Shown piece after piece: positions 4,661 to 31,574 of a DNA stretch of 64,000 nucleotides. Position 1 is the first letter of the stretch; every line of letters starts with the position of its first letter. Both the position numbers and the translations under genes were made by a program. The notes beneath the pieces are model-generated. The model was not told where the DNA came from and made no database searches. It saw only the letters and a program-made list of their open reading frames with translations. Source of the stretch: an uncultured Dehalococcoidia bacterium (lineage in GTDB: Bacteria > Chloroflexota > Dehalococcoidia > DSTF01 > JACRBR01); NCBI GenBank assembly GCA_964371355.1, contig CAYJMG010000017.1, positions 10,277-74,276 of the forward strand, in the 5' to 3' direction.

Positions 4661-6181
4661 ATGAGTGCAACCACCGAGATTTCCACGCAGACGCCACGAC
4701 CGACCGACGCCGCGCGCTACCTGGCCCTGCTGAGCCGCTGGTGGTGGCTGCTGGTGGCCGGCGCCACGATCGCGGGCATCGCCGCGTATTTCGTGACCGG
4801 CACCATCGCGCCGACCTACCGCGCGTCGTCGACGCTGCTCATCAACCAGGTCGAGACGCCCGGCTCAATCGTCTACAGCGACGTGCTCACGAGCGAGCGC
4901 CTGACGAAGACTTACCGCGAACTGATCACGAAGCGCCCGATCCTGGAGACCGTCATCGAAGACGCGGACGAGCCGGGGCTCACCGTCGACGAGCTGTCCG
5001 GGAAGCTGGACACGAAGGCGGTGAAAGACACCCAGCTCGTGACCATCTCCGTGAGCGATGAGTCGCCCCAGCGCGCGGCGCGGCTGGCGAATCTTGTCGC
5101 GAGCACGTTTGTGCGCGAAGAGAGCGAGGACGCCCTGACGCGGACCGGCACCACGCGGATCGTGGAGCCGGCCACGGTGCCTGGCGCGCCCATCGCGCCG
5201 AATCTGAAGCTGAATCTGGCGCTTGCGGTGTTGGCGGGCCTGGTGCTTGCGGGCGGGGTGGCGCTGCTCATCGAGTATCTGGACGACACGATCAAGTCGC
5301 CCGACGACGTGAGCATGGCCTCGGGACTGGCGACGCTGGGCGAAGTGGGGCGGCTGCCGCACGACAAGGACCGCATTCCGCTCAGCACACGCGGGCTGCC
5401 CATGCACGAGGCGGAGACGTACGCGATCCTCCGCACCAACATCCAGTTCAGCTCCATCGCGCACCCGGCCCAGGTGATCCTCGTGGCCAGCGCCAACAGC
5501 GGCGACGGCAAGTCGACGACGTCCGCGAACTACGCCCTGGCATGCGCGGAGTCCGGCAAGCGCGTGGCGCTGGTCGACGCGGACCTGCGGCGGCCGACCC
5601 TGCACCGCGCCTTCGGGCTGGAGAACACAAGCGGACTGACGTCAGTGCTACTGGACGGCGCGTCGCTGGACGAGCGGTCGCTGATTCCCACCAGCCACCC
5701 CAACCTGTTCGTCGTACCCAGCGGCCCTCTGCCGCCGAACCCGACGGAGCTGCTGGAGTGGGTCGGCTTCGACGCCATCATCGAACAGATGAAGCAGAAG
5801 GTGGATGTGATCGTCATCGACAGCTCGCCGCTGCTGGCCGTGGCCGACGCGCGGATCCTTGCAGCGAAAGCTGACGCCACGATCCTCGTGGTCGAGCAGG
5901 GACGGACGCGCGCGAGCGCGCTGCGTGCCGCCTACCACGCGACGGCTCGCGCAAATGCGAACGTACTGGGCGTGGTGCTGAACAAGGTGCGGCGCGGCCG
6001 CAGTGGCTACGGCTCGTACTACTACTACTACGACCGGTCGTACGCGGTGCGCGGCGGCGATTCCGGGGGCGGCGGCGGACGCGGCAGGCTCCCGGAACTG
6101 GCGGCGATTCAACTGGCGCCGGCACACGGCAGTGCGGAGGCGGGACGCGGGGGGGCGGCCGCGGACGAGACGCGCGTGTAG
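4661..6181 (+). CDS. Polysaccharide co-polymerase / tyrosine autokinase (fused Wzz-like transmembrane module plus BY-kinase, Wzc/CpsCD-like).
   Basis: Two TM segments flank a ~130 aa extracytoplasmic loop. Walker A ASANSGDGKSTTSAN. C-terminal Tyr cluster GYGSYYYYYDRSY. Confidence 0.85.
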   Translation: MSATTEISTQTPRPTDAARYLALLSRWWWLLVAGATIAGIAAYFVTGTIAPTYRASSTLLINQVETPGSIVYSDVLTSERLTKTYRELITKRPILETVIEDADEPGLTVDELSGKLDTKAVKDTQLVTISVSDESPQRAARLANLVASTFVREESEDALTRTGTTRIVEPATVPGAPIAPNLKLNLALAVLAGLVLAGGVALLIEYLDDTIKSPDDVSMASGLATLGEVGRLPHDKDRIPLSTRGLPMHEAETYAILRTNIQFSSIAHPAQVILVASANSGDGKSTTSANYALACAESGKRVALVDADLRRPTLHRAFGLENTSGLTSVLLDGASLDERSLIPTSHPNLFVVPSGPLPPNPTELLEWVGFDAIIEQMKQKVDVIVIDSSPLLAVADARILAAKADATILVVEQGRTRASALRAAYHATARANANVLGVVLNKVRRGRSGYGSYYYYYDRSYAVRGGDSGGGGGRGRLPELAAIQLAPAHGSAEAGRGGAAADETRV

Positions 6182-6255
6182 GCACGACACAAACGGGGGA
6201 GATGGGACCGGCCGCTGGGCCGGATCCATGCAAAGGACACGAGGAGGAACACAGC

Positions 6256-6837
6256 ATGCTCAGGATTGCATCGCTACTTGCCGTCGTCACGTCGACGATG
6301 CTGATCGCCTCGATGGCGGGCACGGCTCACGCGCAGTACCCGCCGCCGGGCTCGAGCCTGACGGTCACGGCAGGGCAGACGACGGCGACCGCCGGCCAGA
6401 CGGTCCCCATTACGGCAGTGCTCCGCGACAACGACGGCGACGTACTGGCGAACCAGGCCTGCGTGGCACGCGTGGCGCGCCAGCCCGGCACGGGCGCCAG
6501 CGTTTCACCGACTGACGTCACGACCGATGGCAACGGCGCGGCGCGCACGACGCTCAACGTCGGTAGCACGCCCGGCACGATTGAGGTCGAGGTGGTCTGC
6601 GGCACTATCACCGGCCGGGTCAGCGTGATCCTGTCGGCCGCGGCGCAGCCCCCGCAGTCGCCCATCGAGCTGCCGAGCACAGGCAGCGGGCCCGACTCGC
6701 AGTCCGGTGGACTGACGGCGGTCCTGCTGATCACCGCGGGCGCTATCGCGCTGCTGGGCGCGCGCAGGTACGCACGCACGACGCGCACAAGCGGAAAGCG
6801 ACCATCGACTCGGGCGGCGCACGGCCAGGCGAGCTAG
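6256..6837 (+). CDS. Small secreted Ig-like (Big-type) surface protein with an LPXTG-type cell-wall sorting signal.
   Basis: GAGGAGGA RBS before the ATG at 6256. Signal peptide MLRIASLLAVVTSTMLIASMAGTAHA. Beta-rich Thr/Gly domain. LPSTG, then a 17-aa hydrophobic stretch, then a basic tail RRYARTTR. Confidence 0.6.
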   Translation: MLRIASLLAVVTSTMLIASMAGTAHAQYPPPGSSLTVTAGQTTATAGQTVPITAVLRDNDGDVLANQACVARVARQPGTGASVSPTDVTTDGNGAARTTLNVGSTPGTIEVEVVCGTITGRVSVILSAAAQPPQSPIELPSTGSGPDSQSGGLTAVLLITAGAIALLGARRYARTTRTSGKRPSTRAAHGQAS

Positions 6838-6870: not shown

Positions 6871-8838
6871 GTGTCAGCTCGAGCCATCGCGTGGACGCCC
6901 TGGCTTCGATCGGGCATCGCGAGGCGCGGCGGCCTGCTGGCCTGGATCCTGGCGGCGCTGTTGGTCGCCGGTGTGGTCGAGGGATACCGCGCGGCCATGG
7001 TGCTCCGCGACATCAACCAGGGACGAGCATCGCTCCAACGGGGGGAAGACGTGCTGGAGACGAGACGACTCGACGCGAAGACGGAGGACCTGCGATCGGC
7101 GCGCACGGCGTTCGAGTCGGCGGGCGACGACTTCGCGGCAGCGCAAGGCAGGATGAGCCGCGACCCGCTGCTGTGGGCCGCCGGCCACCTCCCCTTCGCA
7201 GGCCGACAGGTGGACGCGGCCGGGGATCTCGCCGCTGTCGGTGCCGAGGCGAGCGCGATCGGCCTTGCCGCCGTCGATGCCGCCGACGAGTTCGCGGCCG
7301 TGCGCGATGGCGACAGCGGGAGCCTGCTGGAGACCAGCGTCGAGGTCCTGGACCGCACCGCGCCCGCGTTCGACAAGATCGACATGCACCTGTCGCAGGT
7401 GGACGCCCTGCGCAACGGGCTGAGCGGCGGCGCGCTGCTGCCACCCCTGTCCGGCGCGGTCGATAAGCTCGACGAGCGGCGCGAGCACATCGCGACCATC
7501 ATCCAGACGTACGGTGACGCCCGCGCATTCCTGCCGGCGTTCCTGGGGTTCTCCGGGCCGAAGTGTTACCTGGTCCTGGCGCACAACAACGCCGAGCTTT
7601 TGCCCACGGGTGGGCTCGTCAGCGTGCTGGGGCTCATGTGCCTGGAGCGCGGTCGCATGACCACGTTCGAGTTCACCGACGCGATCGAGTTTGGCATGGA
7701 CTGGATGCGGGCCGGCGGAGCGTACGAACCGCCTCCGGGGCCGCTCGACCGCTATCTGCTGAAGGGCGTGACCTGGAACCTCAGCGTCTCGAACTGGTCG
7801 CCTGACTTCCCGACCGCCGCGCGGGAGGCACAGCGGTTCTACGAGCTGGGCGGCGGTGGTCCCGTCGACGGCGTCATCGGGATCAACGTGCGGACGCTGG
7901 AGCGGATGCTGGCCGTGACCGGACCGGTGGAGATCCCCGAATACGGGGTGATGGCCACCAGCAGCAACGTCTTCGACCTCACCGAGCAGTACACGCGCGA
8001 CCCGTCAGCGCCCGATGCGGACCGGAAGGAGTTCGTTGCCCTGCTGGCGCGCGAGGTGCTGGACCGCTCGCTACACCCGGAGACCGGGAACTGGAGCGGG
8101 TTCATCGACCTGGTGCAGAAGCTGGGCGACGAGAAGGAGCTGCTCATCTACGCGAACGACCCAACGCTACAGGATGCCGTCCGCGACCTTGGCGTGGCGG
8201 GCGAGGCCCGCTACGAAGGCGGCGACTTCCTGATGCTGGTGGATGCGAGCGTCAACGGCACCAAGCTCAACGCCGTCATGGAACAGTCGCTCAGCATCGA
8301 CGTGCTGCTGGACGAGCGCGGCGCCGCGCACACGGCGGTCACTATCGACTACTTCAACAACCTCGCGCCGTGGGAGGAGGGCCGGGATCCCGCGCTCGTC
8401 CGAAAGTTGATGCTGGGCGGCGTGTACGGCGACTACGTACGCCTGTACGTGCCACCCGGCAGCACTATCGCCGACGTGCGTGACGAGTTGGGGACCATCG
8501 GGGTGGAGGATGTCGGCGACGAACTGGGGCTGACAGTGTTCGGCCGCTTCTTCACGGTGCCGCGGGACACGCGCCGCCAGTTGAGCTTTTCCTATGTCAC
8601 GCCGGCCGTCGTCGACCTGCGGAGCGGGCGCGAGGCACTGTACCGGCTCACGATCCGCAAGCAGCCGGGCCAGCGCGCGCTGCCCGTCACGCTGCGCCTT
8701 TCGGCGCCGAGCGGCGCCCGCGTCTCCGCGGTGCGCGTGAACGGAGAGAGCGCGGAGCCAGCGGAAGCTGGTCTCCAGATCGAGCTGACGAGGGACTTCG
8801 TCATCGAATACAGCATCGAAAGGACAGGTGCGCAGTGA
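6871..8838 (+). CDS. Membrane-anchored hypothetical protein (N-terminal TM, large extracytoplasmic domain, DUF4012-like).
   Basis: GTG start with GGAAGGA about 10 nt upstream. A single N-terminal TM helix. Synteny with the glycan locus. The family assignment is from memory only. Confidence 0.45.
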   Translation: MSARAIAWTPWLRSGIARRGGLLAWILAALLVAGVVEGYRAAMVLRDINQGRASLQRGEDVLETRRLDAKTEDLRSARTAFESAGDDFAAAQGRMSRDPLLWAAGHLPFAGRQVDAAGDLAAVGAEASAIGLAAVDAADEFAAVRDGDSGSLLETSVEVLDRTAPAFDKIDMHLSQVDALRNGLSGGALLPPLSGAVDKLDERREHIATIIQTYGDARAFLPAFLGFSGPKCYLVLAHNNAELLPTGGLVSVLGLMCLERGRMTTFEFTDAIEFGMDWMRAGGAYEPPPGPLDRYLLKGVTWNLSVSNWSPDFPTAAREAQRFYELGGGGPVDGVIGINVRTLERMLAVTGPVEIPEYGVMATSSNVFDLTEQYTRDPSAPDADRKEFVALLAREVLDRSLHPETGNWSGFIDLVQKLGDEKELLIYANDPTLQDAVRDLGVAGEARYEGGDFLMLVDASVNGTKLNAVMEQSLSIDVLLDERGAAHTAVTIDYFNNLAPWEEGRDPALVRKLMLGGVYGDYVRLYVPPGSTIADVRDELGTIGVEDVGDELGLTVFGRFFTVPRDTRRQLSFSYVTPAVVDLRSGREALYRLTIRKQPGQRALPVTLRLSAPSGARVSAVRVNGESAEPAEAGLQIELTRDFVIEYSIERTGAQ

Positions 8839-8945
8839 GGGCGAGGGCAGCAACCAACGGCCACGTGCCGGCGCAGGCGACCACGGCACGCCTGAACGGC
8901 GCGAGCCATGCTTCGACGAACGGATCGCATCCCGCGCCGAAGGCC

Positions 8946-10355
8946 ATGATCCTGGCGGCGGGCGCAGGCACGCGCCTGAAGCCGCTGACGGACCGCGTGC
9001 CAAAGGCGATGGTGCCCATCGCCGGCAAGCCGCTGCTGGAGCACACGATCGAGCTGCTCGCCCGGAGCGGCGTGCGCGAGATCGCCGTCAACCTGCACGC
9101 GCACGCCGACGTCATCGCCGACGAGCTGGGCGACGGGTCGCGGTTCGGAGTCGCGCTCCGCTACTCCTTCGAACCACGGCTGCTGGGCACGGCCGGCGCG
9201 GTGAAGGCGCTGGCGTCCTTCTTCTCATCGGGTGCGTCGGGCACATCGGGCTCGTCGGGGCCGTTCTACGTCGTCTACGGCGACGTGTTCACACTGATCG
9301 ACCCGCGCCGGATCATGGAAGCGCACCGTGTACACGGCGCGCTGGCGACGATCGCCCTGCGGCGGCCGGACGACGCGAGTCAGTGCGGCATCGTCCAGCA
9401 GGACGCCGAAGGATGGGTCACGGGATTCGTCGAGAAGCCGGCCCCCGGCCAAGCGCCCGCGGACGCCTGGGCGAACGCCGGGATCTACGTGCTGGACCCC
9501 GCCGTACTGGACACCATCGAGGCGGGCATCCCGCAGGACTTCGGCGCCGACGTGTTCGGCGCGCTGGCATCGAACGGCCGCGCGCTCTTCGGATATCGGA
9601 CCGACGCCGCCTGCTGGGACATCGGGTCCGCCACGCGGCTGCGCGAAGCGGACGCGGCGTTGCGAGCGCTCCACGTCACGAGCCCGCGCCGCCGGGCGGT
9701 CGAGCGCGCGGTCGATGCGTACATCGGTGACATTGCCGCGGCCATATCGGCGCTGGACCAGCGTGCCATCGTGCAGGCTGCCGAGCTGCTGCTCGATGCG
9801 CGGACACGCGGGAACGCCGTCTACATCATCGGGAACGGCGGGAGCGCGACGACAGCCAGCCACATGGCGGCGGACCTGGTACGCGCGGCGATGGAGTCCG
9901 ATGGGCCGCCCCTGAACTGCCGCGCGCTCTGCGACAACGTGGCGGTCCTCTCGGCCTGGGCGAACGACGTCGGCTACGAGGCGGTGTTCACACTACAGCT
10001 CTCGCAGATCCTCGCGCCGGGTGATGTCGTTGTCGCCATCTCCGCCAGCGGGAACTCACCCAACATCGTCGCCGCGGCGGAACTGGCGCGTGACCGGGGG
10101 GCATCGGTGCTGGGCTTCTCCGGCTTCGGCGGAGGCGCGCTGGCGCGGCTGTCCGATGTGGCGGTGGTGATCGATAGCGACGAGTACGGGCCGGTGGAGG
10201 ACGCGCACCTCCTGTTGAACCACCTGCTGGCCACAGCGATTCGGCGCGCCAGCCGCGGCGAGCGGCCCGAGGAACGCGGCGAGGACACGGATTCCGCCCA
10301 CGAAGGGAACGATGAGACTGCCGCGCCGGTGCGACGGCTGGCAGCGGCTGCCTGA
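8946..10355 (+). CDS. Bifunctional sugar-1-phosphate nucleotidyltransferase (HddC/ManC-like) fused to a SIS-domain sedoheptulose-7-phosphate isomerase (GmhA-like).
   Basis: N-terminal MILAAGAGTRLKPLT...PKAMVPIAGKPLL (NTP_transferase). C-terminal SIS domain AVYIIGNGGSATTASHMAADL...VVVAISASGNSPNIV. GAAGG RBS 7 nt before the ATG at 8946. The track's GTG start at 8835 adds an unlikely 37-aa extension. Confidence 0.7.
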   Translation: MILAAGAGTRLKPLTDRVPKAMVPIAGKPLLEHTIELLARSGVREIAVNLHAHADVIADELGDGSRFGVALRYSFEPRLLGTAGAVKALASFFSSGASGTSGSSGPFYVVYGDVFTLIDPRRIMEAHRVHGALATIALRRPDDASQCGIVQQDAEGWVTGFVEKPAPGQAPADAWANAGIYVLDPAVLDTIEAGIPQDFGADVFGALASNGRALFGYRTDAACWDIGSATRLREADAALRALHVTSPRRRAVERAVDAYIGDIAAAISALDQRAIVQAAELLLDARTRGNAVYIIGNGGSATTASHMAADLVRAAMESDGPPLNCRALCDNVAVLSAWANDVGYEAVFTLQLSQILAPGDVVVAISASGNSPNIVAAAELARDRGASVLGFSGFGGGALARLSDVAVVIDSDEYGPVEDAHLLLNHLLATAIRRASRGERPEERGEDTDSAHEGNDETAAPVRRLAAAA

Positions 10356-10370: not shown

Positions 10371-11384
10371 ATGTTGATAGCACGAGCGCCGGTGCGCGTC
10401 AGCTTCTTCGGAGGCGGGACCGACTTGCCTGCGTACTACGAACAGCACGGCGGCGCCGTGCTGAGCGCGGCGATCGACAAGTACTTCTACGTGATCCTCG
10501 GGAACAGCGAGGGCTGCGTGCAGGTGTCGTCGTCGGACTACCGTACGTTCTTCCGCCACGAAGGACCGGCCCGGCGCCGGGTGGACGACGACCTTCGCCT
10601 GCCCAGGGCGGTGCTGGACGAATTCTCCGTGTACGAGGGGCTGTCTGTATTCCTGTCGTCGGAGGTGCCGCCCGGCACCGGGCTGGGTTCGTCCAGCGCG
10701 GTTACGGTCGCGCTCGTTAAGGCCATATCGACGTACTGCGGCCGCCAGATGTGTCAGCAAGATCTGGCCGAACTTGCGTGCGAGATCGAGATCGACCGGC
10801 TGGGACAGCCGATCGGAAAGCAGGACCAGTACGCGGCGGCGTTCGGCGGCCTGAACTTCATCGAGTTCCACCCGGACTCGCACGTGGATGTACAGCCCGT
10901 CGCGCTGCCACCTGAGACGCGGCTGGGGCTCGAGCGGCGGGTACTCCTGTTCTTCACGGGCATGTCCCGTGACGCCGCGACGATCCTGGGCGAGCAGCGC
11001 CGCAATCTCACCGAACACCGCGACGAGACGCTGCGAGCGTCCGACGAGATGAAGCGCCAGGCGTTCCACGCCCGCGATCTGCTCCGCGAAAACCGGCTGG
11101 ATGAGTTTGGGACGCTGCTGGATGACGCTTGGCACACGAAGAAGCGCGCGGCGGCGGGCGTCAGCAACGCCCGCACCGATCGCGCGTACGAGGTCGCACG
11201 CGGAGCGGGAGCGCTGGGCGCAAAAGTGGCCGGCGCCGGCGGCGGCGGATTCATGATCGTGTTCTCGCGCGACGGCTATCAGCAGCAGATCATTTCGGCC
11301 CTTGAGGCCGAGGGGCTGTCCGCAATGAAGTTCCGGTTCGAACCGAGTGGAGCGAGGGTGCTTGTCAATGCGCTGGCTGCCTGA
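10371..11384 (+). CDS. hddA: GHMP-family sugar kinase, D-glycero-alpha-D-manno-heptose-7-phosphate kinase (HddA-like).
   Basis: GHMP motif PPGTGLGSSSAVTVAL. N-terminal ARAPVRVSFFGGGTD. Adjacent to the GmhA/HddC fusion. Confidence 0.7.
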   Translation: MLIARAPVRVSFFGGGTDLPAYYEQHGGAVLSAAIDKYFYVILGNSEGCVQVSSSDYRTFFRHEGPARRRVDDDLRLPRAVLDEFSVYEGLSVFLSSEVPPGTGLGSSSAVTVALVKAISTYCGRQMCQQDLAELACEIEIDRLGQPIGKQDQYAAAFGGLNFIEFHPDSHVDVQPVALPPETRLGLERRVLLFFTGMSRDAATILGEQRRNLTEHRDETLRASDEMKRQAFHARDLLRENRLDEFGTLLDDAWHTKKRAAAGVSNARTDRAYEVARGAGALGAKVAGAGGGGFMIVFSRDGYQQQIISALEAEGLSAMKFRFEPSGARVLVNALAA

Positions 11385-12723
11385 ATCCTTCGTGCGCGGT
11401 GACGGCTCTGTCCGCAGGGACTGGCTCGTCTACACCATCGCCCTCGTGGCGATCGACGCCACGGCGACGACGATCGCCCTCGCGCTCGCCGCCGGTCTGC
11501 GGCCGGCCTCGGTGTCGGTCGCGACATACGCGAGCGCGGGCGCGGCGCTGCTGGCGTGCTGGCTCCTGTTCATGCACACCACGGGGCTGTACGGGCGCAC
11601 GCGGCTGCTTTCGGGCACCGATGAGTACGCGGGCGTGCTCCAGGCCGTCGCGGCGATGATGGTGGCGGCCGTGATGGGCGACGTGCTGCTGGACGCGGGA
11701 CTGGTGTCGCGCGGCTGGCTCATGACGTTCCCTGCGGCAGTCGTGGCGCTCACCGGCGTCGCGCGGATGTGCGCCCGGCGCGTCGCCTACGCAACGAGGC
11801 GGCGCGGCGCGTTCCGGTCGCGGGCCATCATCGCAGGCGTCGACGACCGCTCGCTCCAGCTCGCGAAGCATCTGACGGCGTCCGGCTTCGACGTGCTCGG
11901 CTTCCTCGACGACTTCCGGCCCGCCGGTTCGCGCATCGGCGCGGGCCCGTGGCCGGTGCTGGGCGTGACCGCCGAGCTATCGCGAGCCGGTGAGCTGGGC
12001 GCAGACGAGGTGATCGTGAACCCGGTCGCGATCCCATGGGAGAGCCGCAGGGCGATCCTGGGCGCGCAGACCGCGTGGCCATTCGACGTCCGCATGCTTG
12101 CCGACCGCGAGGAGGCGCTGACCGGACACATCCGCGTATCGAGCCGGGCGGGCGTGCCCCTGTACGCGCTGCACGAAGTCCGGATCGCCGGCCTGGAGGC
12201 GGCGGTGAAGCGCGGATTCGACCTTGTCGCGTCACTGGCGTTGGCCGTGCTCCTGGGGCCGTTTGCCGTGTGGCGCGCGCTCAGCCGCCTGGCGGCGCGG
12301 GAGCGCGTGTTCGAGCGCCACGAGCTGCGGGGCGCCGCTGGCCGGCCCTTCACGGTGTACACGCTGGCGGGCCCGGGCCACCGTGTGATCTCGAAGCTGC
12401 CAGCCGTGGCCGCCGTAATCCGCGGCGACATGAGCATCGTCGGACCCGGCGGTATCGAGGGGACGAGCGACCGCGCTTCGTCCGAGCTGCGGATGATGAA
12501 GCCGGGACTCACGTCGCCCGTCCCGGCAGGACGCCAGGGCTTCGACGATGCTTCCGCTGCCGCCGTGCAGCTCGAATACGTGAGGAACTACTCGGTGTGG
12601 CGAGACCTGCAGGTGCTGTGGCACCGGCTGCTGGCGCTTCGGCAGGCGCCGCGGGACGCCGTGAACGCCGCAGCCTTCTGGGAGCTTCGTCCATACGCGC
12701 CGAGCGTGGAGCACGAATCATGA
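11368..12723 (+). CDS. WbaP-like large polyprenyl-phosphate glycosyl-1-phosphate transferase paralog whose catalytic domain looks degenerate.
   Basis: N-terminal TM bundle and a CoA-binding-like middle domain (IIAGVDDRSLQLAKHL). The C-terminal Bac_transf start KRGFDLVASLALAVLLGPF is intact. The DE(LPQL) catalytic dyad reads SK (ISKLPAV). The PRP motif reads PGG. KFRTM is lost. Confidence 0.6.
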   Translation: MRWLPESFVRGDGSVRRDWLVYTIALVAIDATATTIALALAAGLRPASVSVATYASAGAALLACWLLFMHTTGLYGRTRLLSGTDEYAGVLQAVAAMMVAAVMGDVLLDAGLVSRGWLMTFPAAVVALTGVARMCARRVAYATRRRGAFRSRAIIAGVDDRSLQLAKHLTASGFDVLGFLDDFRPAGSRIGAGPWPVLGVTAELSRAGELGADEVIVNPVAIPWESRRAILGAQTAWPFDVRMLADREEALTGHIRVSSRAGVPLYALHEVRIAGLEAAVKRGFDLVASLALAVLLGPFAVWRALSRLAARERVFERHELRGAAGRPFTVYTLAGPGHRVISKLPAVAAVIRGDMSIVGPGGIEGTSDRASSELRMMKPGLTSPVPAGRQGFDDASAAAVQLEYVRNYSVWRDLQVLWHRLLALRQAPRDAVNAAAFWELRPYAPSVEHES

Positions 12724-13427
12724 GCCTCGACTACGCGGAAAAGCATGGGCGCATAAGCACCGTCATGGAGCCGCGGGAGATTGGCGGCGGGCCGCTGTAC
12801 GAACTCCTCACGGCGGCGTACAACCGCGCGGCCGCGCTGGCGCTCATCGTCATGCTGGCGCCGCTGTGGATGGCGATCGCGGTGGCGATCAAGGTGAACT
12901 CGCGCGGCCCGGTGCTGTTCCGCATGCCGATCGTCGGCCGGGGCGGCAGGGTCTTTACGTACTACAAGTTCCGGACGATGAAATCGGGCCAAGACGACGG
13001 CGGCCACCGCGCGTGGATCCGCGCGTTCGTGCAAGGTGACCAACCGTACGCGCGGGACGCCGACGGCAAGGCGGTGTACAAGCTGGTCGACGACCCGAGG
13101 GTGACGCGGACCGGCGGCTGGCTCCGCAAGACCAGCCTCGACGAGCTGCCGCAGCTCATCAACGTCCTGCGCGGCGAGATGAACATCGTGGGCCCGCGAC
13201 CGCCCGTCTCGTACGAGTACGAGCTGTACCGCCCGCACGAGCGGATGCGGCTGGCGGTAAGGCCCGGCATTACCGGCCTGTACCAGGTCAACAAGCGCGG
13301 GCGGGCGAGCTTCAGCGAAATGCTCGCGCTGGACCTGGAGTACGCCCGGCGGCGGTCCCTGTGGCTCGACATCCTCATCATGTTGCGCACGCCGCGGGCG
13401 ATGTTGGGCGAGGTGAGCAAGCCATGA
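12720..13427 (+). CDS. Small (PglC-type) phosphoglycosyl transferase that keeps the catalytic signature.
   Basis: ATGA start/stop overlap with the upstream gene. GPVLFRMPIVGRGGRVFTYYKFRTM, LDELPQLINVLRGEMNIVGPRPP and GITGLYQV motifs are all present. Confidence 0.8.
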   Translation: MSLDYAEKHGRISTVMEPREIGGGPLYELLTAAYNRAAALALIVMLAPLWMAIAVAIKVNSRGPVLFRMPIVGRGGRVFTYYKFRTMKSGQDDGGHRAWIRAFVQGDQPYARDADGKAVYKLVDDPRVTRTGGWLRKTSLDELPQLINVLRGEMNIVGPRPPVSYEYELYRPHERMRLAVRPGITGLYQVNKRGRASFSEMLALDLEYARRRSLWLDILIMLRTPRAMLGEVSKP

Positions 13428-21007: not shown

Positions 21008-21182
21008 GCAACACAATCCTGAAGATGCGGCCGAACATCTCACGTCGCAACGAACCCGATCGTGCAGCGGCGACGCCGGTGGCTCGTGCACGCGCGGCGC
21101 GCCCCATCCGGGTCAAGCCGACGTTCATCCAGCTTCGGAGGCCCCGCTTTGCGGTGTCCGACGGGCTTATGACGGAGGCGCC

Positions 21183-23590: not shown

Positions 23591-24801
23591 GGACAGCGAT
23601 CCGCGAGCCGACGGTCCTGGAACCGACGCAGCGCCCCGCTGGTCCAGCGGTGGCGCCGATGCGCATCGCCTTCGTGACGGGCGAGTTCCCGCCCGATACG
23701 GGCGGCGTCGGCGACTACACACAACACCTGGCGGGCGCCCTGGGCGACCGCGGGCACGAAATCACCGTAGTCAGCACGGCGGCGGAGCACGACGCGCACG
23801 CCGGAGGGCACGGCGACACGCGCTTCGAGGTGCTGACGACCGGCGGCCGGCCGTCAGCGGCCGGCAGCGTCATGACGATCGTCCGCTCGCTACGGCCCGG
23901 CGTCGTGAGCTTCCAGTACGTGCCCCAGATGTACGGGCGAGCAGGAATCGCACCGGCGATCGCCACCCTGCCGCTGAAGCTCCGGCGTGAGGGTATCCGC
24001 GTCGTCTGCACGATGCACGAGATCGCGTCGCCCTTCGCGCCGGGCCCGCGACGGTCCGCGGTCGCCCTGGCGCACCGGCTCCAGGCGGCGGTCCTGCTCG
24101 CCGGGTGCGACACGGTCATCGTCACCAACGCCGCCCACGGCCGGTTCGCGCGCCGGCTCAGCCTTGGCCGCGCGCGGGTGCACCAGATACCGGTCGGAGC
24201 AAGCGTGCTCCCGCACGGCGATCGCGCCGCATCCGCGGCCCTGCGCCACGAGTTCGGCGAGGCCGTGCTGCTGGCCGGCGACTTCAGCCCGCTCGCAGTC
24301 GGGAAGCGTCCCGAAGACCTGATCGCATTGGCCCGCACGGCGGGACCGCGCGCCCGCTTCATGATGATGGGCGGGCTCCCGGCCGACGCGCGGCGGCGGG
24401 CGGCCTTCATCCGGCGCGCGGAAGCGGCTGGCGTTGACGATCGCTTCCTGTGGACAGGCCAGCTGACCTCACGCGACATCTCGCGCCACCTCGGCGCGCT
24501 TGATCTGTACGTACACACGAGCCACGCCGGCCCCACCGGCGGCAGCACGACGCTCGCGTCGGCGCTGGCGCACGGGTTGCCGGCCGTCGCGTACGACAGC
24601 GGCGACACGCCGGCCTACGCGCGGCAGGGTGGAATCGCGTTGGCGGCGCCGGGTAAGACCGAGGACTTCGTGGAAAAGGCCGCGGCGCTGCTGGACGATC
24701 CGGCCGCACGCTCGGCCCTGGGTGAGGGGGCAGAGCGGCTGCACGAGCGCCACCTGTCCTGGGATGTCATCGCGCAGCAGGCAGAGGAGGCCATGTCATG
24801 A
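23584..24801 (+). CDS. GT4-family glycosyltransferase.
   Basis: MRIAFVTGEFPPDTGGVGDYT core. An alternative start at 23659 is more typical for the family. The C-terminal GT-B domain is present. Confidence 0.75.
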   Translation: MVGTAIREPTVLEPTQRPAGPAVAPMRIAFVTGEFPPDTGGVGDYTQHLAGALGDRGHEITVVSTAAEHDAHAGGHGDTRFEVLTTGGRPSAAGSVMTIVRSLRPGVVSFQYVPQMYGRAGIAPAIATLPLKLRREGIRVVCTMHEIASPFAPGPRRSAVALAHRLQAAVLLAGCDTVIVTNAAHGRFARRLSLGRARVHQIPVGASVLPHGDRAASAALRHEFGEAVLLAGDFSPLAVGKRPEDLIALARTAGPRARFMMMGGLPADARRRAAFIRRAEAAGVDDRFLWTGQLTSRDISRHLGALDLYVHTSHAGPTGGSTTLASALAHGLPAVAYDSGDTPAYARQGGIALAAPGKTEDFVEKAAALLDDPAARSALGEGAERLHERHLSWDVIAQQAEEAMS

Positions 24802-26228
24802 TCGCCATCCAGACACCGCGCATCGAGCGCAACGCCCCCATCGTCGTGGTTGGCCTGTTGGCGCTCGTACTGCTCGGCGAAATCGTGGTGGGAAACGCGG
24901 CTGCGCGGGGACGCAGCGACCTCCTGACGCTGTTCGCCGTCGCGGCGGCGTTCTGCTTCTCCTTCGTCTACTGGCGGCAGGCCGTGTACGGGGCGCTGAT
25001 GCTGGTGTTCGTCGAAGGGTACTTCCGCAACCTGTTCAACGACCCCGGCGTGTTGCTGCTGAAAGATCTCGTCGTGTTCGCCATCTACGCCCGGGTGCTG
25101 ACGGACCGCGTGCAGCGTCGCGACACGCTGGTGCCCGCCAGCCCTATCGGCCTGCCCCTCGCCATATTCGCCAGCATCGTGATCGTGCAGATGGCTAACC
25201 CGCACGTCACGTCGTTCGAGCAGGCGCTCGTCGGCGTGCGGACCTGGCTGTATTACGTGCCCCTGTTCTTCGTGGCGCAGGAGATGATCCGCGAGGAGCG
25301 CGACCTGCGCCGCACCGGGTGGTTCGTGCTCATCGCCGCGGTGCCCATCGGCCTCCTCGGCCTGTACCAGTACCTGGCGGGCTCGCAGGCGTACGCCAGC
25401 CTGGGTCCGGGGTTCGCCAACGCGACATTCCTGGTGGGCGACGGCGCATCCGCGATCTTCCGCCCGAACGCGACCTTCGCCTGGCCGTCGAACTTCGCGC
25501 TGTTCCTCTCCCTCGCCACGCTGCTGTGCCTGGGCTTGCTCCTGGGGAGTCGCGGCCAAAGCCGCTGGGTCCTCTGGTTCCTGCTCGCGGGCCTCATCGG
25601 CATGAACGTGATCGAGAATCAGCGCTCGCTGCTCGTGCTGTTGCCGCCGCTCATGCTGGCCACCATCGCCCTGCGCAAAAGCTACGGCGCGGCGACGCTG
25701 ACGGCGCTCGCGATGCTGTTCGGTATCGTCGTCGTCGCGCTCGTCGCCTCGCCCGGTACGTTTACCCGCGTTGACGGCCTGGTCCGCAACCAGGACGGCA
25801 TCTTCCACGCTCGCACGATGACCTACGCCGAGCACCTGCGACTCGCGCTCGACTCCCCGATCGGCCTCGGCACCGGCGCGACGGCCATCGGCACGCGCCA
25901 CGTCGCGGGCGACATCCCGCTGTTCGTCGAGTTCTCGCTGGCCAAGGTGGCGGGCGACCTCAGCGCCCTAGGCCTCGCAGCATACCTGTGGCTCTTCGTC
26001 GCGCTGGTCCGCACGACGTTGCGGGCGCACCGTGCGGCCTCGCGTGCGCGGATGACGGGGGTGGCGGGCCTGTGCGCGGCGACCGCGTCGTTCCAGCTCC
26101 TTGTCGCCTACACGGGCTACGAGCTGGCCGTGGTGGCGCTGCCGTTCTGGTTCCTGAGCGGGGCGATGGTCGCCTTCGACCGCACGGGAATGCCCGAACC
26201 GCTTGCGGAAACGGGAGGCGCCGCATGA
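24798..26228 (+). CDS. wzy: Wzy-type O-antigen/glycan polymerase (O-antigen ligase-like multi-TM protein).
   Basis: GAGGAGG RBS. About 11 TM helices with a large loop. Sits between glycosyltransferases in a Wzx-containing locus. Confidence 0.65.
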   Translation: MIAIQTPRIERNAPIVVVGLLALVLLGEIVVGNAAARGRSDLLTLFAVAAAFCFSFVYWRQAVYGALMLVFVEGYFRNLFNDPGVLLLKDLVVFAIYARVLTDRVQRRDTLVPASPIGLPLAIFASIVIVQMANPHVTSFEQALVGVRTWLYYVPLFFVAQEMIREERDLRRTGWFVLIAAVPIGLLGLYQYLAGSQAYASLGPGFANATFLVGDGASAIFRPNATFAWPSNFALFLSLATLLCLGLLLGSRGQSRWVLWFLLAGLIGMNVIENQRSLLVLLPPLMLATIALRKSYGAATLTALAMLFGIVVVALVASPGTFTRVDGLVRNQDGIFHARTMTYAEHLRLALDSPIGLGTGATAIGTRHVAGDIPLFVEFSLAKVAGDLSALGLAAYLWLFVALVRTTLRAHRAASRARMTGVAGLCAATASFQLLVAYTGYELAVVALPFWFLSGAMVAFDRTGMPEPLAETGGAA

Positions 26229-27367: not shown

Positions 27368-28491
27368 TGCGCGTCCGCATGCTGCACACGCTGCCGGCCG
27401 ATGGCCGCACCAGCTCGGAGGTGTACGCGGGCGAGCTGGCAGGGGCGCTGGCCCGCATCGGGGCCACCGATCTCGAACTGACGCACCATCGCCCAGGCGA
27501 GCCGGCGCGATCGCTCCTCGCCGGGCTCAACGCCGGGCTCAACGCCGCGGCGCGTTTGGGCACATACATCGACCACTACGTCGCGTATCCCTGGCGCGCC
27601 GCGGCTGAAGCGGCCGACGTCCACCACGTCATCGAGCACGGTTACGGCCACCTCGCGCTGCGGCTCCCGGCGCGCCGCACGGTGGTGACCTTCCACGACG
27701 CCATGCTCATGAAGCTGCAGGCGCGCGAGCTGCCAACGCCCTACTACCCGCGCTCGTCGTTCCTTGCCCACCGCTTCAGCATCGCCGGGATGGAGCGGGC
27801 CGCGCACGTCGTCGCTGTGTCCAATCAGTCGCGGGCCGATTTGCTGCGGTTCACCGACTGCGACCCGGCACGTGTCAGCGTCATCCACGAAGGCGTGTCG
27901 CCGTCCTTCCGCCCGTCGCCGCGCACGGACGCCGGCGAAGCCCGGGGGACCGTGCGCATCCTGCACGTCGGACACTGCGGCTTCTACAAGAACATCGAGA
28001 CCATTCTGCGCGTCATCGCCGCACTCCGTCGGCGCTCCGAATGCTCTGTGGAGTTCGTGAAGGCCGGCGGGGCGTTCACGCTGGACCAGCGCGCACTCAT
28101 CGCCCGCCTCGACATCGATGACCGGGTCCGCTGGCTCGGCAACGTCCCCGCGCCTGACCTTCCCGGCGTCTACGGATCGGCGGACGTGCTGCTTATGCCG
28201 TCGCTGTACGAGGGATTCGGCCTACCCGCGCTGGAGGCAATGGCATGCGGCACGCCGGTCGTCGCATCAAACGCGGGCGCGCTGCCGGAGATCCTGGGAG
28301 ACGCGGGGCTACTGGCCCATCCGCTCGACGTCGACGGACTCGCCGCGCAGGTCACTCGCGTGCTCACGGAGCCCGGGCTGCGAGCCGAAATGCGGCATCG
28401 GGGCATCACGCGGGCGGCGAACTTCGCCTGGGAACGTACGGCACAGGCCACGCTGGAGGTCTACCGGCGTGTACAGGAGGAGGCATCATGA
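27367..28491 (+). CDS. GT4-family glycosyltransferase.
   Basis: SLYEGFGLPALEAMACGTPVVASNAGALPEIL. Confidence 0.8.
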   Translation: MRVRMLHTLPADGRTSSEVYAGELAGALARIGATDLELTHHRPGEPARSLLAGLNAGLNAAARLGTYIDHYVAYPWRAAAEAADVHHVIEHGYGHLALRLPARRTVVTFHDAMLMKLQARELPTPYYPRSSFLAHRFSIAGMERAAHVVAVSNQSRADLLRFTDCDPARVSVIHEGVSPSFRPSPRTDAGEARGTVRILHVGHCGFYKNIETILRVIAALRRRSECSVEFVKAGGAFTLDQRALIARLDIDDRVRWLGNVPAPDLPGVYGSADVLLMPSLYEGFGLPALEAMACGTPVVASNAGALPEILGDAGLLAHPLDVDGLAAQVTRVLTEPGLRAEMRHRGITRAANFAWERTAQATLEVYRRVQEEAS

Positions 28492-29372
28492 ACGCGACGG
28501 CTTCGGCCACGGTAAGTGGCAACCAATCACGGCTGAAACGGAAGCTGCTGCAGGGTTCCCCGCGGCGAGCGCTGGAGATCCTGCGCTCGGCGCGGCGTAC
28601 CGGCCTGCGAATCCTCGATCCGCTCGACTACGCCGCGCGCGCCATCAACAACCAGCGGCGGCTTCCACCGTTCCACCTCCGACGCGAGGTCGGCGACCCC
28701 AGCATCTTCGAGCGCTCGGGCGCCGAGTTTCTGGCGTACATGCGCCTGATCTGCGGCCTGCGGCCGGGCGAGCGCGTGCTGGACATCGGCTGCGGCTGCG
28801 GACTGATGGCGCTGTTCCTCGAGGACTACCTGGACGACAGCGGCTCCTATACCGGGATCGACGTGCAGGCCGAGGCCATCGACTGGTGCACGTCGCACAT
28901 CGCCGACCGACGGCCGAATTTCCGCTTCGTGCACCTGGACCGCCACAGCAGCAGGTACAACCCGGGCGGCGAAAGCGGCCCCCTGCGCCTGCCGTTCGAG
29001 AACGCGTCCTTCGACGTGATGGTCGTGAAATCGGTGTTCACGCACCTGCTCCGCGGCGACCTCGAGGAATACATACGGGAGATCAGTCGCGTGCTCGCCC
29101 CTGGTGGCCGCTGCCTGGCGTCGTGGTTCGTGTTCGACCTGCCGGGTGCACCATCGCGTGCGAGCACGTTCGGCCACGGCGACGGCGTCTGCCGCTATGA
29201 ATCGGAGCACAGCCCGGAAACCGCCGTCGCCTACAGCGAACCCTACCTGCGATCGCTCCTGGCCGCCCACGACCTCGAGATCCAGGGTCCCGTGTACCGC
29301 GGCCGCTGGGCGGGGGAGGCGGACGGCCTCTCGACCCAGGACCTCATGGTGATCGCGCACCACGATGCTTGA
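28488..29372 (+). CDS. Class I SAM-dependent methyltransferase (fifth in the locus).
   Basis: ATGA overlap. VLDIGCGCGLMALFL...LAPGGRCL. Confidence 0.7.
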   Translation: MNATASATVSGNQSRLKRKLLQGSPRRALEILRSARRTGLRILDPLDYAARAINNQRRLPPFHLRREVGDPSIFERSGAEFLAYMRLICGLRPGERVLDIGCGCGLMALFLEDYLDDSGSYTGIDVQAEAIDWCTSHIADRRPNFRFVHLDRHSSRYNPGGESGPLRLPFENASFDVMVVKSVFTHLLRGDLEEYIREISRVLAPGGRCLASWFVFDLPGAPSRASTFGHGDGVCRYESEHSPETAVAYSEPYLRSLLAAHDLEIQGPVYRGRWAGEADGLSTQDLMVIAHHDA

Positions 29373-30621
29373 GACAAGAGCCGGATCGCGGCAGACGGCG
29401 ATGACAGCGCCCGCACGTGCCCGTCGGGAGCCGGGACGGCGCACGGTGCTGTTCGTGCAGCCCACGTCGGAGGTGGGTGGCTCTGACATCGCGCTCTATC
29501 GCCTGGCGGCGGAGCTGGACCGCACCAGGTTCGATCCCGTGGTCGTGCTGCCGCGCGAAGGCCCGCTCACCGGCAAGCTGCGCGACGCTGGCGTGCGCGT
29601 CGTCATATGCCCGATGACCCAGCTTCGATCCACGCGCAACCCGCTCGTGCACCTGCGATACCTGGCCGCGTTCGTGCCGTCCGTGGCCGCCCTGGTGCTC
29701 CGCATCCGCCGCGAGCGAGCGGCGATCGTCCACACCAACTCGCTGTACAGCCTGCAAGGGGCGTGGGCGGCGCGCGTCGCCCGCGTGCCGCACGTCTGGC
29801 ATATCCGGGAGATCCCCGACGCGCCGTGGCCGATCAGGAGCCTGCTGCTCTTTATGGCGCGCAACCTCTCAACGCGCGTCGTCGCAATGACCGGCGCGGT
29901 GGCCTCGATGTTCGGCGAACGCCGCGACGAGCGTCTCCTCACCATCCCCGACGGCATCGACCTCACGCGATTCTCCCCGGAGCACCAGGGAGAGCGGGTC
30001 CGCCGCGACCTGGGGATCCCGCCCGGAGCGCCCGTCGCGGGCTTCGTCGCGCGTCTCGACCCGTGGAAAGGCGCCGACGTGTTCGTTCGAGCGGCGGCGG
30101 AGGCCGCCCGTCAGCGCCCGGACGCGCACTTCATCGTGTGCGGTGGCGAGCTGCCGGGCTACGAGGCATACGCGAGAGGCCTGCGCGAGCTGGCCGGACG
30201 ACTCGGCCTCGACGGCCGGATGCACTTCACGGGCTGGACGTACCGCGTCGACGACATCCCCGACGTCATGGGCGCGATCGACGTCCTGGTGCACACGTCG
30301 GTGCGCCCTGAGCCCTTCGGGCTGGTGCTGATCGAGGCGATGGCCAGCGGCAAGCCCGTTGTGGCCGCGCGTGACGGCGGCGTCCCCGAAATCGTCGAAG
30401 ATGGCGTGACCGGGGTCCTCGTACGGCCGGGCGACTGGTACGAAGCAGCCTGCGCCGTGGCGGCCCTCCTGGGGCAACCAGAGCGTGCGCGCGTGATGGG
30501 CGCCGCGGGCCGGAGGCGTGCACAGCGGCTGTTCGACATCGACACGTACGTCCGCCGCGTCGAGCGCCTCTATGACGAGATCCTGACCACGGAACGGCTA
30601 ATGGAGGCACAGGCAGCATGA
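29365..30621 (+). CDS. GT4-family glycosyltransferase.
   Basis: SVRPEPFGLVLIEAMASGKPVVAARDGGVPEIVEDGVTG. Alternative start at 29401. Confidence 0.8.
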   Translation: MLETRAGSRQTAMTAPARARREPGRRTVLFVQPTSEVGGSDIALYRLAAELDRTRFDPVVVLPREGPLTGKLRDAGVRVVICPMTQLRSTRNPLVHLRYLAAFVPSVAALVLRIRRERAAIVHTNSLYSLQGAWAARVARVPHVWHIREIPDAPWPIRSLLLFMARNLSTRVVAMTGAVASMFGERRDERLLTIPDGIDLTRFSPEHQGERVRRDLGIPPGAPVAGFVARLDPWKGADVFVRAAAEAARQRPDAHFIVCGGELPGYEAYARGLRELAGRLGLDGRMHFTGWTYRVDDIPDVMGAIDVLVHTSVRPEPFGLVLIEAMASGKPVVAARDGGVPEIVEDGVTGVLVRPGDWYEAACAVAALLGQPERARVMGAAGRRRAQRLFDIDTYVRRVERLYDEILTTERLMEAQAA

Positions 30622-31574
30622 GCGCGCGCCTTAGCGTGATCGTCGTGAACTTCAACGGCGGCTCGACCGTCCGCCAGTGCCTGGAACACCTGTGGCCGCA
30701 GATCCCCGAGGGCGCAGACGGCTGCGAGGTGGCCCTCGTGGACAACGCTTCCAGCGACCGCAGCGCCGACGGCCTCGAGCGCGCATTCCCGGCCCTGCGA
30801 ATCATCAGGAATCACGAAAACGTCGGATTCGCACGGGCCAACAACCAGGCCATCGTCGACACCACGGGGGAGTACGTCCTGCTGCTGAACCCCGATGTCG
30901 TACTCGCGCCCGGCGCGCTCTCGACGGCGCTGGCATACATGGACGGACACGGCGACGTGAGCATCCTTGGGCCCAAGATCCTGCTGCCCGACGGCCGGCT
31001 CGACCCGGCCGCGCACCGTTCCTTCAAGACGCCGATGACGTACCTGTATCGCATGGCGGGGCTCTCAAGGCTCTTCCCACGCAACCGCATCTTCGGCCGG
31101 TACTACCTGACGTATCTCGACGAGAACTCAATCGCCGACGTCGACTCCGTGGTGGGCGCGTTCCTGCTTATCCGCCGGTCGGTCATCGACGAGATCGGCA
31201 TGCTGGACGAGCGGTTCTTCATGTACTGCGAGGACGAGGACTGGTGCTGGCGCGTAAAGCAGGCAGGGGGCCGCGTCGTGTATCACCCGGGCGTGGTGGC
31301 CCACCACCGAAAAGGAAGCAGCACGCGAACGGTGCCCATCCGCATGGCGTACCACTGGCACCGCTCCCTGTACCTGTACCACCGCAAGAACATCGCGCGC
31401 CGCTACGGCGCGGTGACAAACCTGACGGTGTACGCGGGCATCGCACTATCGCTCGCCGCGAAGGTCGTCCTCCTGACTGCGCATCGCGTCCTTGGCCGCC
31501 GTCCGGTGTCAATGAGGACGGGAGGCATCACCACAGTGGGGCCGCGTCCTGCCGCGCCATCGCCGCCGCGCTGA
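30618..31574 (+). CDS. GT2-family (GT-A) glycosyltransferase.
   Basis: LSVIVVNFNGGSTVRQCL...VALVDNASSD...LLLNPD. GGAGG RBS. Confidence 0.8.
   Translation: MSARLSVIVVNFNGGSTVRQCLEHLWPQIPEGADGCEVALVDNASSDRSADGLERAFPALRIIRNHENVGFARANNQAIVDTTGEYVLLLNPDVVLAPGALSTALAYMDGHGDVSILGPKILLPDGRLDPAAHRSFKTPMTYLYRMAGLSRLFPRNRIFGRYYLTYLDENSIADVDSVVGAFLLIRRSVIDEIGMLDERFFMYCEDEDWCWRVKQAGGRVVYHPGVVAHHRKGSSTRTVPIRMAYHWHRSLYLYHRKNIARRYGAVTNLTVYAGIALSLAAKVVLLTAHRVLGRRPVSMRTGGITTVGPRPAAPSPPR

Follow-up and report, generated by a model that had tools for sequence, protein, structure and literature searches.

A conserved 24-gene locus of an uncultured Chloroflexota bacterium predicted to direct Wzx/Wzy-type assembly of a methylated surface heteropolysaccharide

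Which glycan, and by which route, would be made by the 24 consecutive genes at positions 4661-31574 of a 64,000-nucleotide stretch of contig CAYJMG010000017.1 (called the window here, meaning the whole of the analyzed DNA), and do these genes form a unit at all? Our analysis points to an operon for a Wzx/Wzy-type surface heteropolysaccharide, regulated by a bacterial tyrosine kinase (BY-kinase), in an uncultured and presumably monoderm member of the Chloroflexota, and we assign this reading a probability of about 0.78. Judging from the encoded enzymes, the polymer is most likely a methylated glycan built from heptose and deoxy-sugars. The analysis itself establishes gene content, motifs, fold, synteny, and host lineage; we infer the identities of nucleotides and sugars, the methyl acceptors, the order of the steps, the roles of the genes g2, g3 and g6, and the destination of the polymer.

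Because the G+C content of the window is ~69%, raw lists of open reading frames (ORFs) were full of spurious frames. Genes were called by codon-position GC (GC1 > GC2, GC3 > 0.8), with start codons checked at each junction. This yielded 24 genes (g1 to g24), all on the forward strand and spanning 4661-31574, the same ends that an earlier note on this DNA had given for a co-oriented and frequently ATGA-coupled block. Overlaps of 4 bp were found at 11 of the 23 junctions (nine ATGA, two GTGA) and overlaps of 7-20 nt at a further five, bringing the overlapping junctions to 16 of 23, and the only sizeable intergenic gap, 175 nt in width, is located at 21008-21182. The 24 genes are a single operon. 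As all of them share one orientation and one functional theme, and as their order is kept in unrelated contigs, the block is beyond chance.

The conservation of gene order was evaluated on contigs encoding homologues of g4, g6 or g19, to which all 24 proteins were compared by tblastn. The block is collinear in at least seven other metagenomic contigs or metagenome-assembled genomes (MAGs) at protein identities of 45-90%. Two JGI metagenome contigs, L087 and L095, carry g1-g17 in the same order, with identities of 72-90% in L087, and the 122-kb JGI contig L092 covers g9-g24, all collinear at 55-87% identity. Contigs of a Dehalococcoidia MAG (L085, GCA_004297475.1) and of a second assembly (L089, GCA_040960095.1) contain g1, g2 and g4-g14 at 45-78% identity, the latter additionally g16, and both lack the DUF4012 gene g3 as well as g15. 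In a Chloroflexi MAG (L088, GCA_016213125.1), g5-g17 are collinear. The distant loci L090 and L094 retain a core of kinase, LPXTG protein, DUF4012 protein, heptose genes and g6, while their flippase, glycosyltransferase and methyltransferase sets differ from those of the window. Since the whole block is collinear across contigs, it represents one conserved unit and not a set of scattered paralogs.

The same comparisons indicate the host. The window corresponds to a metagenome contig of 93 kb (ENA ERZ13693126 NODE_656). An identical g4 protein was found on 23 contigs, and the named relatives of g4 and g6 stem from MAGs labelled Dehalococcoidia or Chloroflexi/Chloroflexota. PilB, encoded 27 kb from the locus and having no relation to it, has NCBI-named relatives in Dehalococcoidia bacteria (95, 79, and 76% identity) and a Chloroflexota bacterium (78%). 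Based on the relatives of PilB, g4 and g6, we consider the host a high-GC member of the Chloroflexota, Dehalococcoidia as labelled by the MAG submitters, and not an actinobacterium, leaving the actinobacterial cell-wall loci that had been proposed for comparison off target. Sortase-type anchoring has been reported for Gram-positive lineages including Chloroflexi (PMC6744442), and the assumption of a monoderm host fits this report. Wza-type, lipid-A or core genes were not found in the 64-kb window.

The predicted assembly machinery starts with g1 (4661..6181), encoding a 506-aa chain-length regulator fused to a tyrosine autokinase (Pfam Wzz, GNVR, and ParA/AAA_31). The protein passes the TIGR01007 model (187 bits, cutoff 108) and displays Walker A (GDGKST), A' (VDADLRRP) and B (VIDSSP) motifs together with a C-terminal GYGSYYYYYDRSY tyrosine cluster. 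Two transmembrane (TM) segments at ~31-49 and 186-204 enclose a loop of ~135 aa, and a Wzz-like domain is present. By these features g1 reads as a bona fide BY-kinase and is best called a fused enzyme of the CpsC/CpsD type. It had previously been described as a fused Wzc autokinase; the fusion and the kinase stand, but not the name Wzc, as the equivalog model NF008568 scored 130 bits against a cutoff of 1068 and aligned with the kinase domain alone.

Priming of the lipid carrier can be ascribed to g7 (12720..13427), an intact small monotopic phosphoglycosyl transferase (PGT) that is the predicted initiating enzyme (Bac_transf, 194 bits). It retains SLDELPQL with the DE dyad and GPRPP with the PRP motif, and matches WbaP (E 2e-36) as well as PglC (E 4e-28). 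The gene is ATGA-coupled to its upstream neighbor g6 (11368..12723), which encodes a paralogue of the large PGTs devoid of the catalytic residues. The architecture of g6 is that of a large WbaP-type PGT, i.e., an N-terminal region of four TM segments, a CoA_binding_3 “DUF” domain, a re-entrant helix, and a remnant of the Bac_transf domain. Alignment to WbaP and g7 revealed that LDELP is changed to ISKLP (DE to SK) and GPRP to GPGG (RP to GG), and that a deletion of ~41 aa spans the KFRTM and DPRVT motifs. These lesions are identical in 22 out of 22 homologues at 47-77% identity, all of them intact ORFs, and the remnant motifs RGxMSIVGP and YVRNYSxWRDLQVLW are conserved. Two sequences with ~30% identity to g6 (P0156 and P0157) are likewise degenerate, and beyond them canonical PGTs only were encountered. 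The g6 proteins form a discrete clade of at least 22 sequences, the named members of which all belong to the Chloroflexota. An AlphaFold (AF2) model computed from the family alignment (pLDDT 78.6) has WbaP (8T53, E 8e-14) as its top structural match, and its C-terminal part matches PglC. The genomic position is just as constant: in each of the nine contexts examined, g6 starts within the HddA gene or just past it, and in eight of them an intact small PGT is located no more than two genes away.

On sequence grounds, g6 is predicted to be catalytically dead as a PGT. In the homodimer of WbaP, the two subunits are held by the DUF domain, which binds uridine nucleotides (UMP) and appears to regulate catalysis (PMC10942596). 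In g6, the TM bundle of WbaP-type enzymes is retained, as is their domain for nucleotide binding and dimerisation. Most likely the protein has no catalytic role and works in the membrane as a scaffold or regulator of the small PGT, perhaps also of the heptose enzymes. No description of a dead large-PGT paralogue was found in the PGT-superfamily literature searched.

Translocation and polymerisation are represented by g11 and g19. The product of g11 (16320..17864) is a Wzx-type flippase, with Polysacc_synt and Polysacc_synt_3 above their gathering cutoffs and at least eight hydrophobic segments, and ABC-transporter (Wzm/Wzt) or synthase domains were not detected among the 24 genes. The Wzy candidate g19 (24798..26228) encodes a polytopic membrane protein with at least nine hydrophobic segments. 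An exhaustive HMMER search retrieved ~650 representative relatives of g19, and a profile of 50 family sequences matched the WaaL-type polymerase/ligase 7TPG (E 1.5e-10) and RodA (3e-4); a weak match to HpsL was also recorded. As this family profile and 19 of the 50 family members, which individually match Pfam Wzy_C (PF04932), point in the same direction, g19 is placed in the Wzy/WaaL superfamily. By BLASTP, g19 had no significant match to the protein of L090 that is positive for Wzy_C. Seven glycosyltransferases complete this set: Pfam assigns six to GT4, namely g16, g17, and g18 (21183-22403, 22400-23590, and 23584-24801; Glycos_transf_1 with Glyco_transf_4), g20 and g21 (26225-27367 and 27364-28491), and g23 (29365..30621), and one to GT2, g24 (30618..31574), the last gene of the block.

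Two modules for nucleotide-activated sugars are embedded between these genes. The first one comprises g4 (8835..10355; NTP_transferase and SIS_2), a fusion of an HddC-like sugar-1-phosphate nucleotidyltransferase with a GmhA-like sedoheptulose-7-phosphate isomerase, and g5 (10371..11384), a GHMP kinase with D-glycero-D-manno-heptose-7-phosphate kinase HddA as best match. The C-terminal SIS domain of g4 scored 95-107 bits against GmhA models, under their cutoffs of 209-320, and the N-terminal domain 145 bits against mannose-1-phosphate guanylyltransferase, its best match, and 68 bits against HddC, both under the cutoffs. Similarly, g5 aligned with NF049969 over its full length at 190 bits (cutoff 600). 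With such scores, the assignment to heptose rests on context, i.e., on the fusion itself, on GmhB in the modules of relatives, and on triple fusions. In L090 and L094, a gene for a GmhB-type HAD phosphatase directly precedes the g4 orthologue, the g4 homologues P0055 and P0057 are HddC-GmhA-GmhB triple fusions, and L096 encodes a GmhA-GmhB fusion (4859-5965) with HddC unfused.

The second module is predicted to yield a CDP-activated sugar. The product of g9 (14547..15335), a DdhA/RfbF-like glucose-1-phosphate cytidylyltransferase, narrowly misses the cutoff of TIGR02623 (284 bits, cutoff 300) while aligning with positions 1-255 of 255. For g10 (15328..16323), a DdhB/RfbG-like NDP-glucose 4,6-dehydratase of putative CDP type, the CDP model TIGR02622 scored best (186 bits, cutoff 278), followed by the dTDP model (173 bits), and PDB matches to dTDP- and CDP-glucose dehydratases were of similar strength. 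The protein carries SSDK and YxxxK motifs. In CDP-glucose dehydratases, an Asp-Lys pair is the variant of the Asp-Glu pair of RmlB, and the SDK motif of g10 presumably resembles the CDP type, represented by the active sites of 1WVG and 1RKX. As no DdhC or DdhD genes are present in the block, the product is expected to be a 6-deoxy sugar and not a 3,6-dideoxy one.

The remaining enzyme of this group, g8 (13424..14545), is a GalE-like short-chain dehydrogenase/reductase (S119, Y178xxxK182) and a candidate for either an NDP-4-keto-6-deoxyhexose 4-reductase or an NDP-hexose 4-epimerase, with UDP-hexose/N-acetylhexosamine 4-epimerases as nearest structures. It is present or absent jointly with g7, g9, and g10, as seen by its absence in L090. 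The sole candidate for the final 4-reductase of the CDP branch is g8, which most likely reduces the 4-keto sugar; alternatively, it might provide the PGT with its substrate. An insertion of ~45 aa (residues ~127-175) contains C130-x2-H133...C155-x2-C158, invariant in five out of five orthologues, which may form a small metal (zinc)-binding knuckle unusual for this enzyme family.

Five class-I methyltransferases point to a methylated product. The best defined one is g12 (17845..18636), a TylF-family sugar O-methyltransferase (PF05711, 152 bits, cutoff 23) with the sugar O-methyltransferases NovP and MycF as nearest solved structures. The others are g13 (18644..19489; Methyltransf_24, weak match to 6G7D, E 5e-7), g14 (19491..20318; Methyltransf_11/25, weak matches to 3BUS and 6UV6), g15 (20315..21007; Methyltransf_11/25), which is accessory as judged from its absence in L085, L088, and L089, and g22 (28488..29372; Methyltransf_25/11, weak matches only). 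The weak matches of g13, g14, and g22 include RebM (3BUS), a D-glucose O-methyltransferase (6UV6), and 6G7D, which we take to be sugar O-methyltransferases. Searching the available literature for wall polysaccharides with O-methyl sugars in Chloroflexus gave no result.

Two further products are predicted to act outside the cytoplasm. The 193-aa protein g2 (6256..6837, alternative start 6202) displays all features of a secreted sortase substrate, in the order signal peptide, Ig-like Big_1 domain, LPSTG sorting signal, hydrophobic segment, and basic tail. Its position directly behind the kinase recurs in all five loci that were aligned, where the sorting signal reads LP[SN]TG and two cysteines are invariant; the sortase-substrate features are kept in six loci, and the protein is present in every locus covering that position. 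In L094 (3650-4909), a sortase gene with a TLVTC motif is located between the BY-kinase and an LPATG Ig-like protein, and a PMT_2 GT-C enzyme is encoded 5' of Wzx inside the locus, an arrangement tying sortase anchoring, and possibly glycosyl transfer on the outside face, to these loci. The 655-aa DUF4012 protein g3 (6871..8838; PF13196, 89.6 bits) has one N-terminal TM segment and a large extracytoplasmic part. It is present in L087, L090, L094, and L095 and absent in L085 and L089; its single-sequence AlphaFold model was unusable (pLDDT 39). We infer that g2, as a sortase-anchored Ig-like protein, and g3 are conserved extracytoplasmic accessories.

Taken as an inventory, the gene counts of the earlier note hold throughout. 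Pfam returns its six GT4 and one GT2 enzymes, its five class-I methyltransferases including one of TylF type, and its Wzx flippase, and the embedded LPXTG protein is g2 with its complete set of sorting features. Both sugar modules are found by Pfam domains, but the attributes GDP and CDP apply at family level, as all scores are under the cutoffs. Its Wzy could be traced to the Wzy_C superfamily via the family profile and not by a direct Pfam match, and the heavy O-methylation that it proposed stands as a prediction. It did not mention g3, g6, g7, and g8 as well as a candidate small ORF.

That ORF (21025..21186, forward strand) resides inside the sole large gap, encodes an Arg-rich product of 53 aa and is ATGA-coupled to g16. 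Its motif [IV]RVK[RP][TA]F[IV][QR][LI]xRP is kept, with synonymous codon changes, in L087, L092, and L088, and the ORF is absent from L095. It is a possible 25th gene of the block.

Combining these parts, the following pathway can be proposed. NDP-heptose and a CDP-6-deoxyhexose would be synthesised in the cytoplasm, the latter by conversion to CDP-4-keto-6-deoxyglucose by g9 and g10 and, most likely, reduction by g8. The small PGT g7 would prime polyprenyl phosphate and thereby start the repeat unit, which the seven glycosyltransferases would extend to ~8 sugars at most, with up to five S-adenosylmethionine (SAM)-dependent methyltransferases O-methylating the sugars on the cytoplasmic face. 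The unit would then be flipped by g11 and polymerised by g19, with g1 setting chain length and export. The final polymer could remain as a loose capsule or exopolysaccharide (EPS), could be linked to peptidoglycan via an LCP enzyme encoded elsewhere, or could be attached to protein. More speculatively, initiation might require two proteins, the pseudo-enzyme g6, always coupled in translation to the heptose kinase, and g7, with regulation split from catalysis and tied to the supply of NDP-heptose, and with g2 and the DUF4012 protein as a wall-side export or attachment component; we put this extended scheme forward as a tentative possibility, with the odds against it. Neither a split PGT initiation nor a wall-side g2/DUF4012 component was found in the PGT and capsule literature searched.

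Several observations weigh against the proposed polysaccharide pathway or parts of it. The matches to HddA, HddC, GmhA and CDP-dehydratase models stay under the NCBIfam equivalog cutoffs, so the substrates are assigned at family level only. A GmhB phosphatase was not found in the 64-kb window by tblastn and must be encoded elsewhere in the genome or be replaced by another phosphatase. The resemblance of g8 to UDP-hexose 4-epimerases exceeds that to known 4-reductases, and if g8 were an epimerase, the CDP branch would be left without a reductase. Direct Pfam search of g19 gave no match at E<=10, and by sequence a polymerase is not separable from a ligase or an O-oligosaccharyltransferase (O-OTase) in this family; the presence of the BY-kinase and of just one Wzy_C-type gene favors the polymerase. 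Four of the five methyltransferases have generic matches only. A BY-kinase phosphatase and an LCP ligase were not found in the 64-kb window, nor was a sortase by tblastn. Finally, L090 encodes a g6 orthologue with no small PGT visible within 10 kb.

Some of these points would suit a different reading, in which the locus serves protein O-glycosylation and g19, acting as O-OTase, transfers the glycan onto the LPXTG Ig-like protein or a surface-layer (S-layer) protein. The sole solved relative of the g19 family is indeed a WaaL-type ligase, and Pfam Wzy_C spans ligases, O-OTases, and polymerases alike. The candidate acceptor, a Thr/Ser-rich LPXTG protein, is kept beside the kinase in every locus covering that position, and L094 holds both a sortase and a PMT_2 GT-C enzyme within its locus. 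A homologue of the TMEM260-like O-mannosyltransferases (694 aa, 48532-50616, reverse strand), encoded 17 kb downstream, may be relevant to protein glycosylation in the host. However, a BY-kinase/polysaccharide co-polymerase (PCP) is typical of polymerising Wzy pathways, seven glycosyltransferases suit a repeat unit, and only one Wzy_C-type gene is present. Known Wzx/Wzy-type S-layer glycosylation loci require a polymerase plus an OTase. Within the window, neither an S-layer protein gene nor a second Wzy_C/OTase gene was found, and the S-layer option of the earlier note finds no support, while its proposal of a monoderm glycan other than lipopolysaccharide (LPS) is supported by domains, motifs, and synteny. 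Overall, we regard a protein O-glycosylation locus as unlikely.

The polysaccharide operon was further weighed against three explanations of much lower probability. An LPS O-antigen cluster of a diderm bacterium is suggested by the best-studied analogues of ddhA/ddhB, hddA/hddC/gmhA, wzx, and wzy, which are enterobacterial clusters (PMC5399914, PMC7685785), but the Chloroflexota host lineage, the conserved LPXTG sorting signal, a kinase of the short CpsC/D type, and the failure to find Wza, lipid A, or core genes in the window make this very improbable. It would be still more surprising if the block belonged to a cluster for a glycosylated secondary metabolite, as its deoxysugar and tailoring portion. 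The kinship of the TylF-family g12 to NovP and MycF and the NDP-hexose 4,6-dehydratase would be in line with such a role, whereas PGT, Wzx, Wzy_C-family protein, and BY-kinase indicate lipid-linked polymer assembly, and neither the block nor its flanks yielded genes for polyketide synthases (PKS), nonribosomal peptide synthetases (NRPS), or an aglycone. The missing catalytic residues of g6 and the GmhB missing from the window might suggest that housekeeping paralogs have come together by chance, or that the locus is decaying and g6 is a pseudogene. Scattered paralogs without synteny had been named beforehand as the outcome that would overturn the glycan locus; collinearity in at least seven contigs or MAGs, with the entire order kept at 45-90% identity, removes it, and across 22 homologues, down to 47% identity, the reading frame of g6 is intact, shows the same set of lesions, and retains the remnant motifs. 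Synteny and ORF conservation refute this explanation.

Comparison with characterized systems places the locus mechanistically, by analogy, with the Gram-positive-type Wzx/Wzy capsule and EPS loci, while the combination and order of its sugar modules most resemble Yersinia O-antigen clusters. With Gram-positive loci such as Streptococcus pneumoniae cps and the eps locus of Bifidobacterium longum 105-A (PMC5412050), it shares an operon of PGT, glycosyltransferases, Wzx, Wzy (here the candidate g19), and PCP/BY-kinase in a monoderm. The B. longum 105-A eps locus also has a DUF4012 gene, located between priming transferase and Wzz (PMC5412050). In contrast to these loci, the kinase is one fused polypeptide here, the block is devoid of the CpsA/LCP ligase and the CpsB/Wzb phosphatase, and it additionally holds the dead large PGT, the LPXTG Ig-like protein, heptose and CDP-sugar modules, and 4-5 methyltransferases in a Chloroflexota host. 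In the modular Wzx/Wzy O-antigen clusters of Yersinia pseudotuberculosis and Y. enterocolitica, ddhA-ddhB is directly followed by wzx (PMC5399914), as is the case for g9-g10-g11. The GDP-heptose pathway (gmhA, hddA, gmhB, hddC) occurs in the same Yersinia clusters (PMC5399914) and in E. coli O52 (PMC7685785), and 6-deoxy-L-altrose and 6-deoxygulose are precedents for CDP-6-deoxyhexoses formed without DdhC/D (PMC5399914, PMC7685785). Those clusters, however, direct diderm LPS O-antigens, for which WaaL performs the ligation and Wzz acts as regulator with no kinase involved. They include the 6-deoxyheptose enzymes dmhA/dmhB and have no methyltransferase block, whereas the present locus carries gmhA and hddC in fused form and has no gmhB.

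A heptose route in bacteria without LPS has a precedent in M. tuberculosis (PMC7705670). Such routes follow the same logic of GmhA isomerase, GHMP-type HddA kinase, GmhB phosphatase, and HddC guanylyltransferase; in comparison, the window locus is predicted to supply only three of these four, two of which are joined in one protein, and the scores are under the equivalog cutoffs. Among the large monotopic PGTs (WbaP/CpsE, 8T53, PMC10942596), g6 shares architecture and fold but has neither the Asp-Glu dyad nor the PRP motif of WbaP, and its catalytic domain is short of ~41 residues, while g7 is a canonical small PGT like PglC. Two further systems are distinguished by their export, and both differ in this from the Wzx/Wzy route proposed here. 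The S-layer glycan of Aneurinibacillus is assembled via the ABC-transporter route and not by Wzx/Wzy. Campylobacter jejuni capsule loci possess an hddC/gmhA/hddA heptose module with O-methylated heptoses in the surface polysaccharide, yet these diderm capsules are exported by an ABC transporter (Kps), with no Wzx/Wzy or BY-kinase. What sets the window locus apart from all compared systems are the host phylum, the fused HddC-GmhA, the block of 4-5 methyltransferases, the pairing of a dead large PGT with a small PGT, and the conserved sortase-substrate Ig-like protein. It is an ordinary, known kind of system in an unstudied lineage, with a few unusual conserved parts, the dead g6 above all.

Upstream of the operon, a candidate sigma-70-like promoter (4564..4592, forward strand; TTGAAA-17-GATAGT) lies ~70 nt 5' of g1, a consensus match only, with one site observed versus 0.1 expected in shuffles. 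Rfam matched a tRNA alone and no leader or riboswitch 5' of the operon. This tRNA-Gly(CCC) (4119-4194, reverse strand) is positioned left of the locus, next to genes for a tyrosine integrase (3107-4069, reverse) and a C5 DNA methylase (1296-3047, reverse). With 59-62% GC compared with ~69% elsewhere in the window, positions 1-4194 are a probable integrated element, and on contig L087 the same integrase adjoins the locus, together with a Vsr endonuclease gene. Since the 3' end of the tRNA-Gly faces the integrase, the element extends to the left and the glycan block lies outside of it. Location of the locus inside an integrase/tRNA island was considered and rejected, given that it is found on the 5' side of the tRNA and has a GC content like the rest of the window. 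The right flank, on the opposite strand, encodes MobA and a formate-dehydrogenase-like FdsA/NuoF pair. In L092 the block also stops at g24 and is followed by unrelated hydrolase and PEP-mutase genes; this shared end with a different downstream flank shows that the 24 genes act as a self-contained unit.

Other genes of the window deserve brief mention. A bacterial eRF1-like protein (baeRF family 10/acVLRF1; 36688-38097, forward strand), of a family described as restricted to Actinobacteria and Chloroflexi, adjoins the formate-dehydrogenase-like genes. A multicopper oxidase and two cupredoxin-domain proteins (38874-40534, reverse, and 45889-46467, forward) may form a copper-dependent redox module that has no relation to the glycan locus. 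A type IV pilus cluster (52269-60629, reverse) comprises PilM-like, PilC/T2SSF, and PilB/T2SSE proteins and also a PA14/DUF7483 protein of 962 aa (54510-57398), whose codon-position GC is atypical (GC1 ~ GC2).

Soils, sediments, and groundwater are rich in Chloroflexota, a large phylum of mostly uncultured bacteria whose cell-surface glycans are almost unknown experimentally. For one such glycan, the locus described here offers a defined set of genes that is conserved and open to testing, and the chemistry predicted for this glycan, combining heptose, a CDP-derived 6-deoxyhexose, and several O-methyl groups, is unusual. Within this set, the conserved and apparently dead large PGT provides a naturally occurring test case for those domains of WbaP-type enzymes that are not catalytic, for which a regulatory role was recently proposed (PMC10942596).

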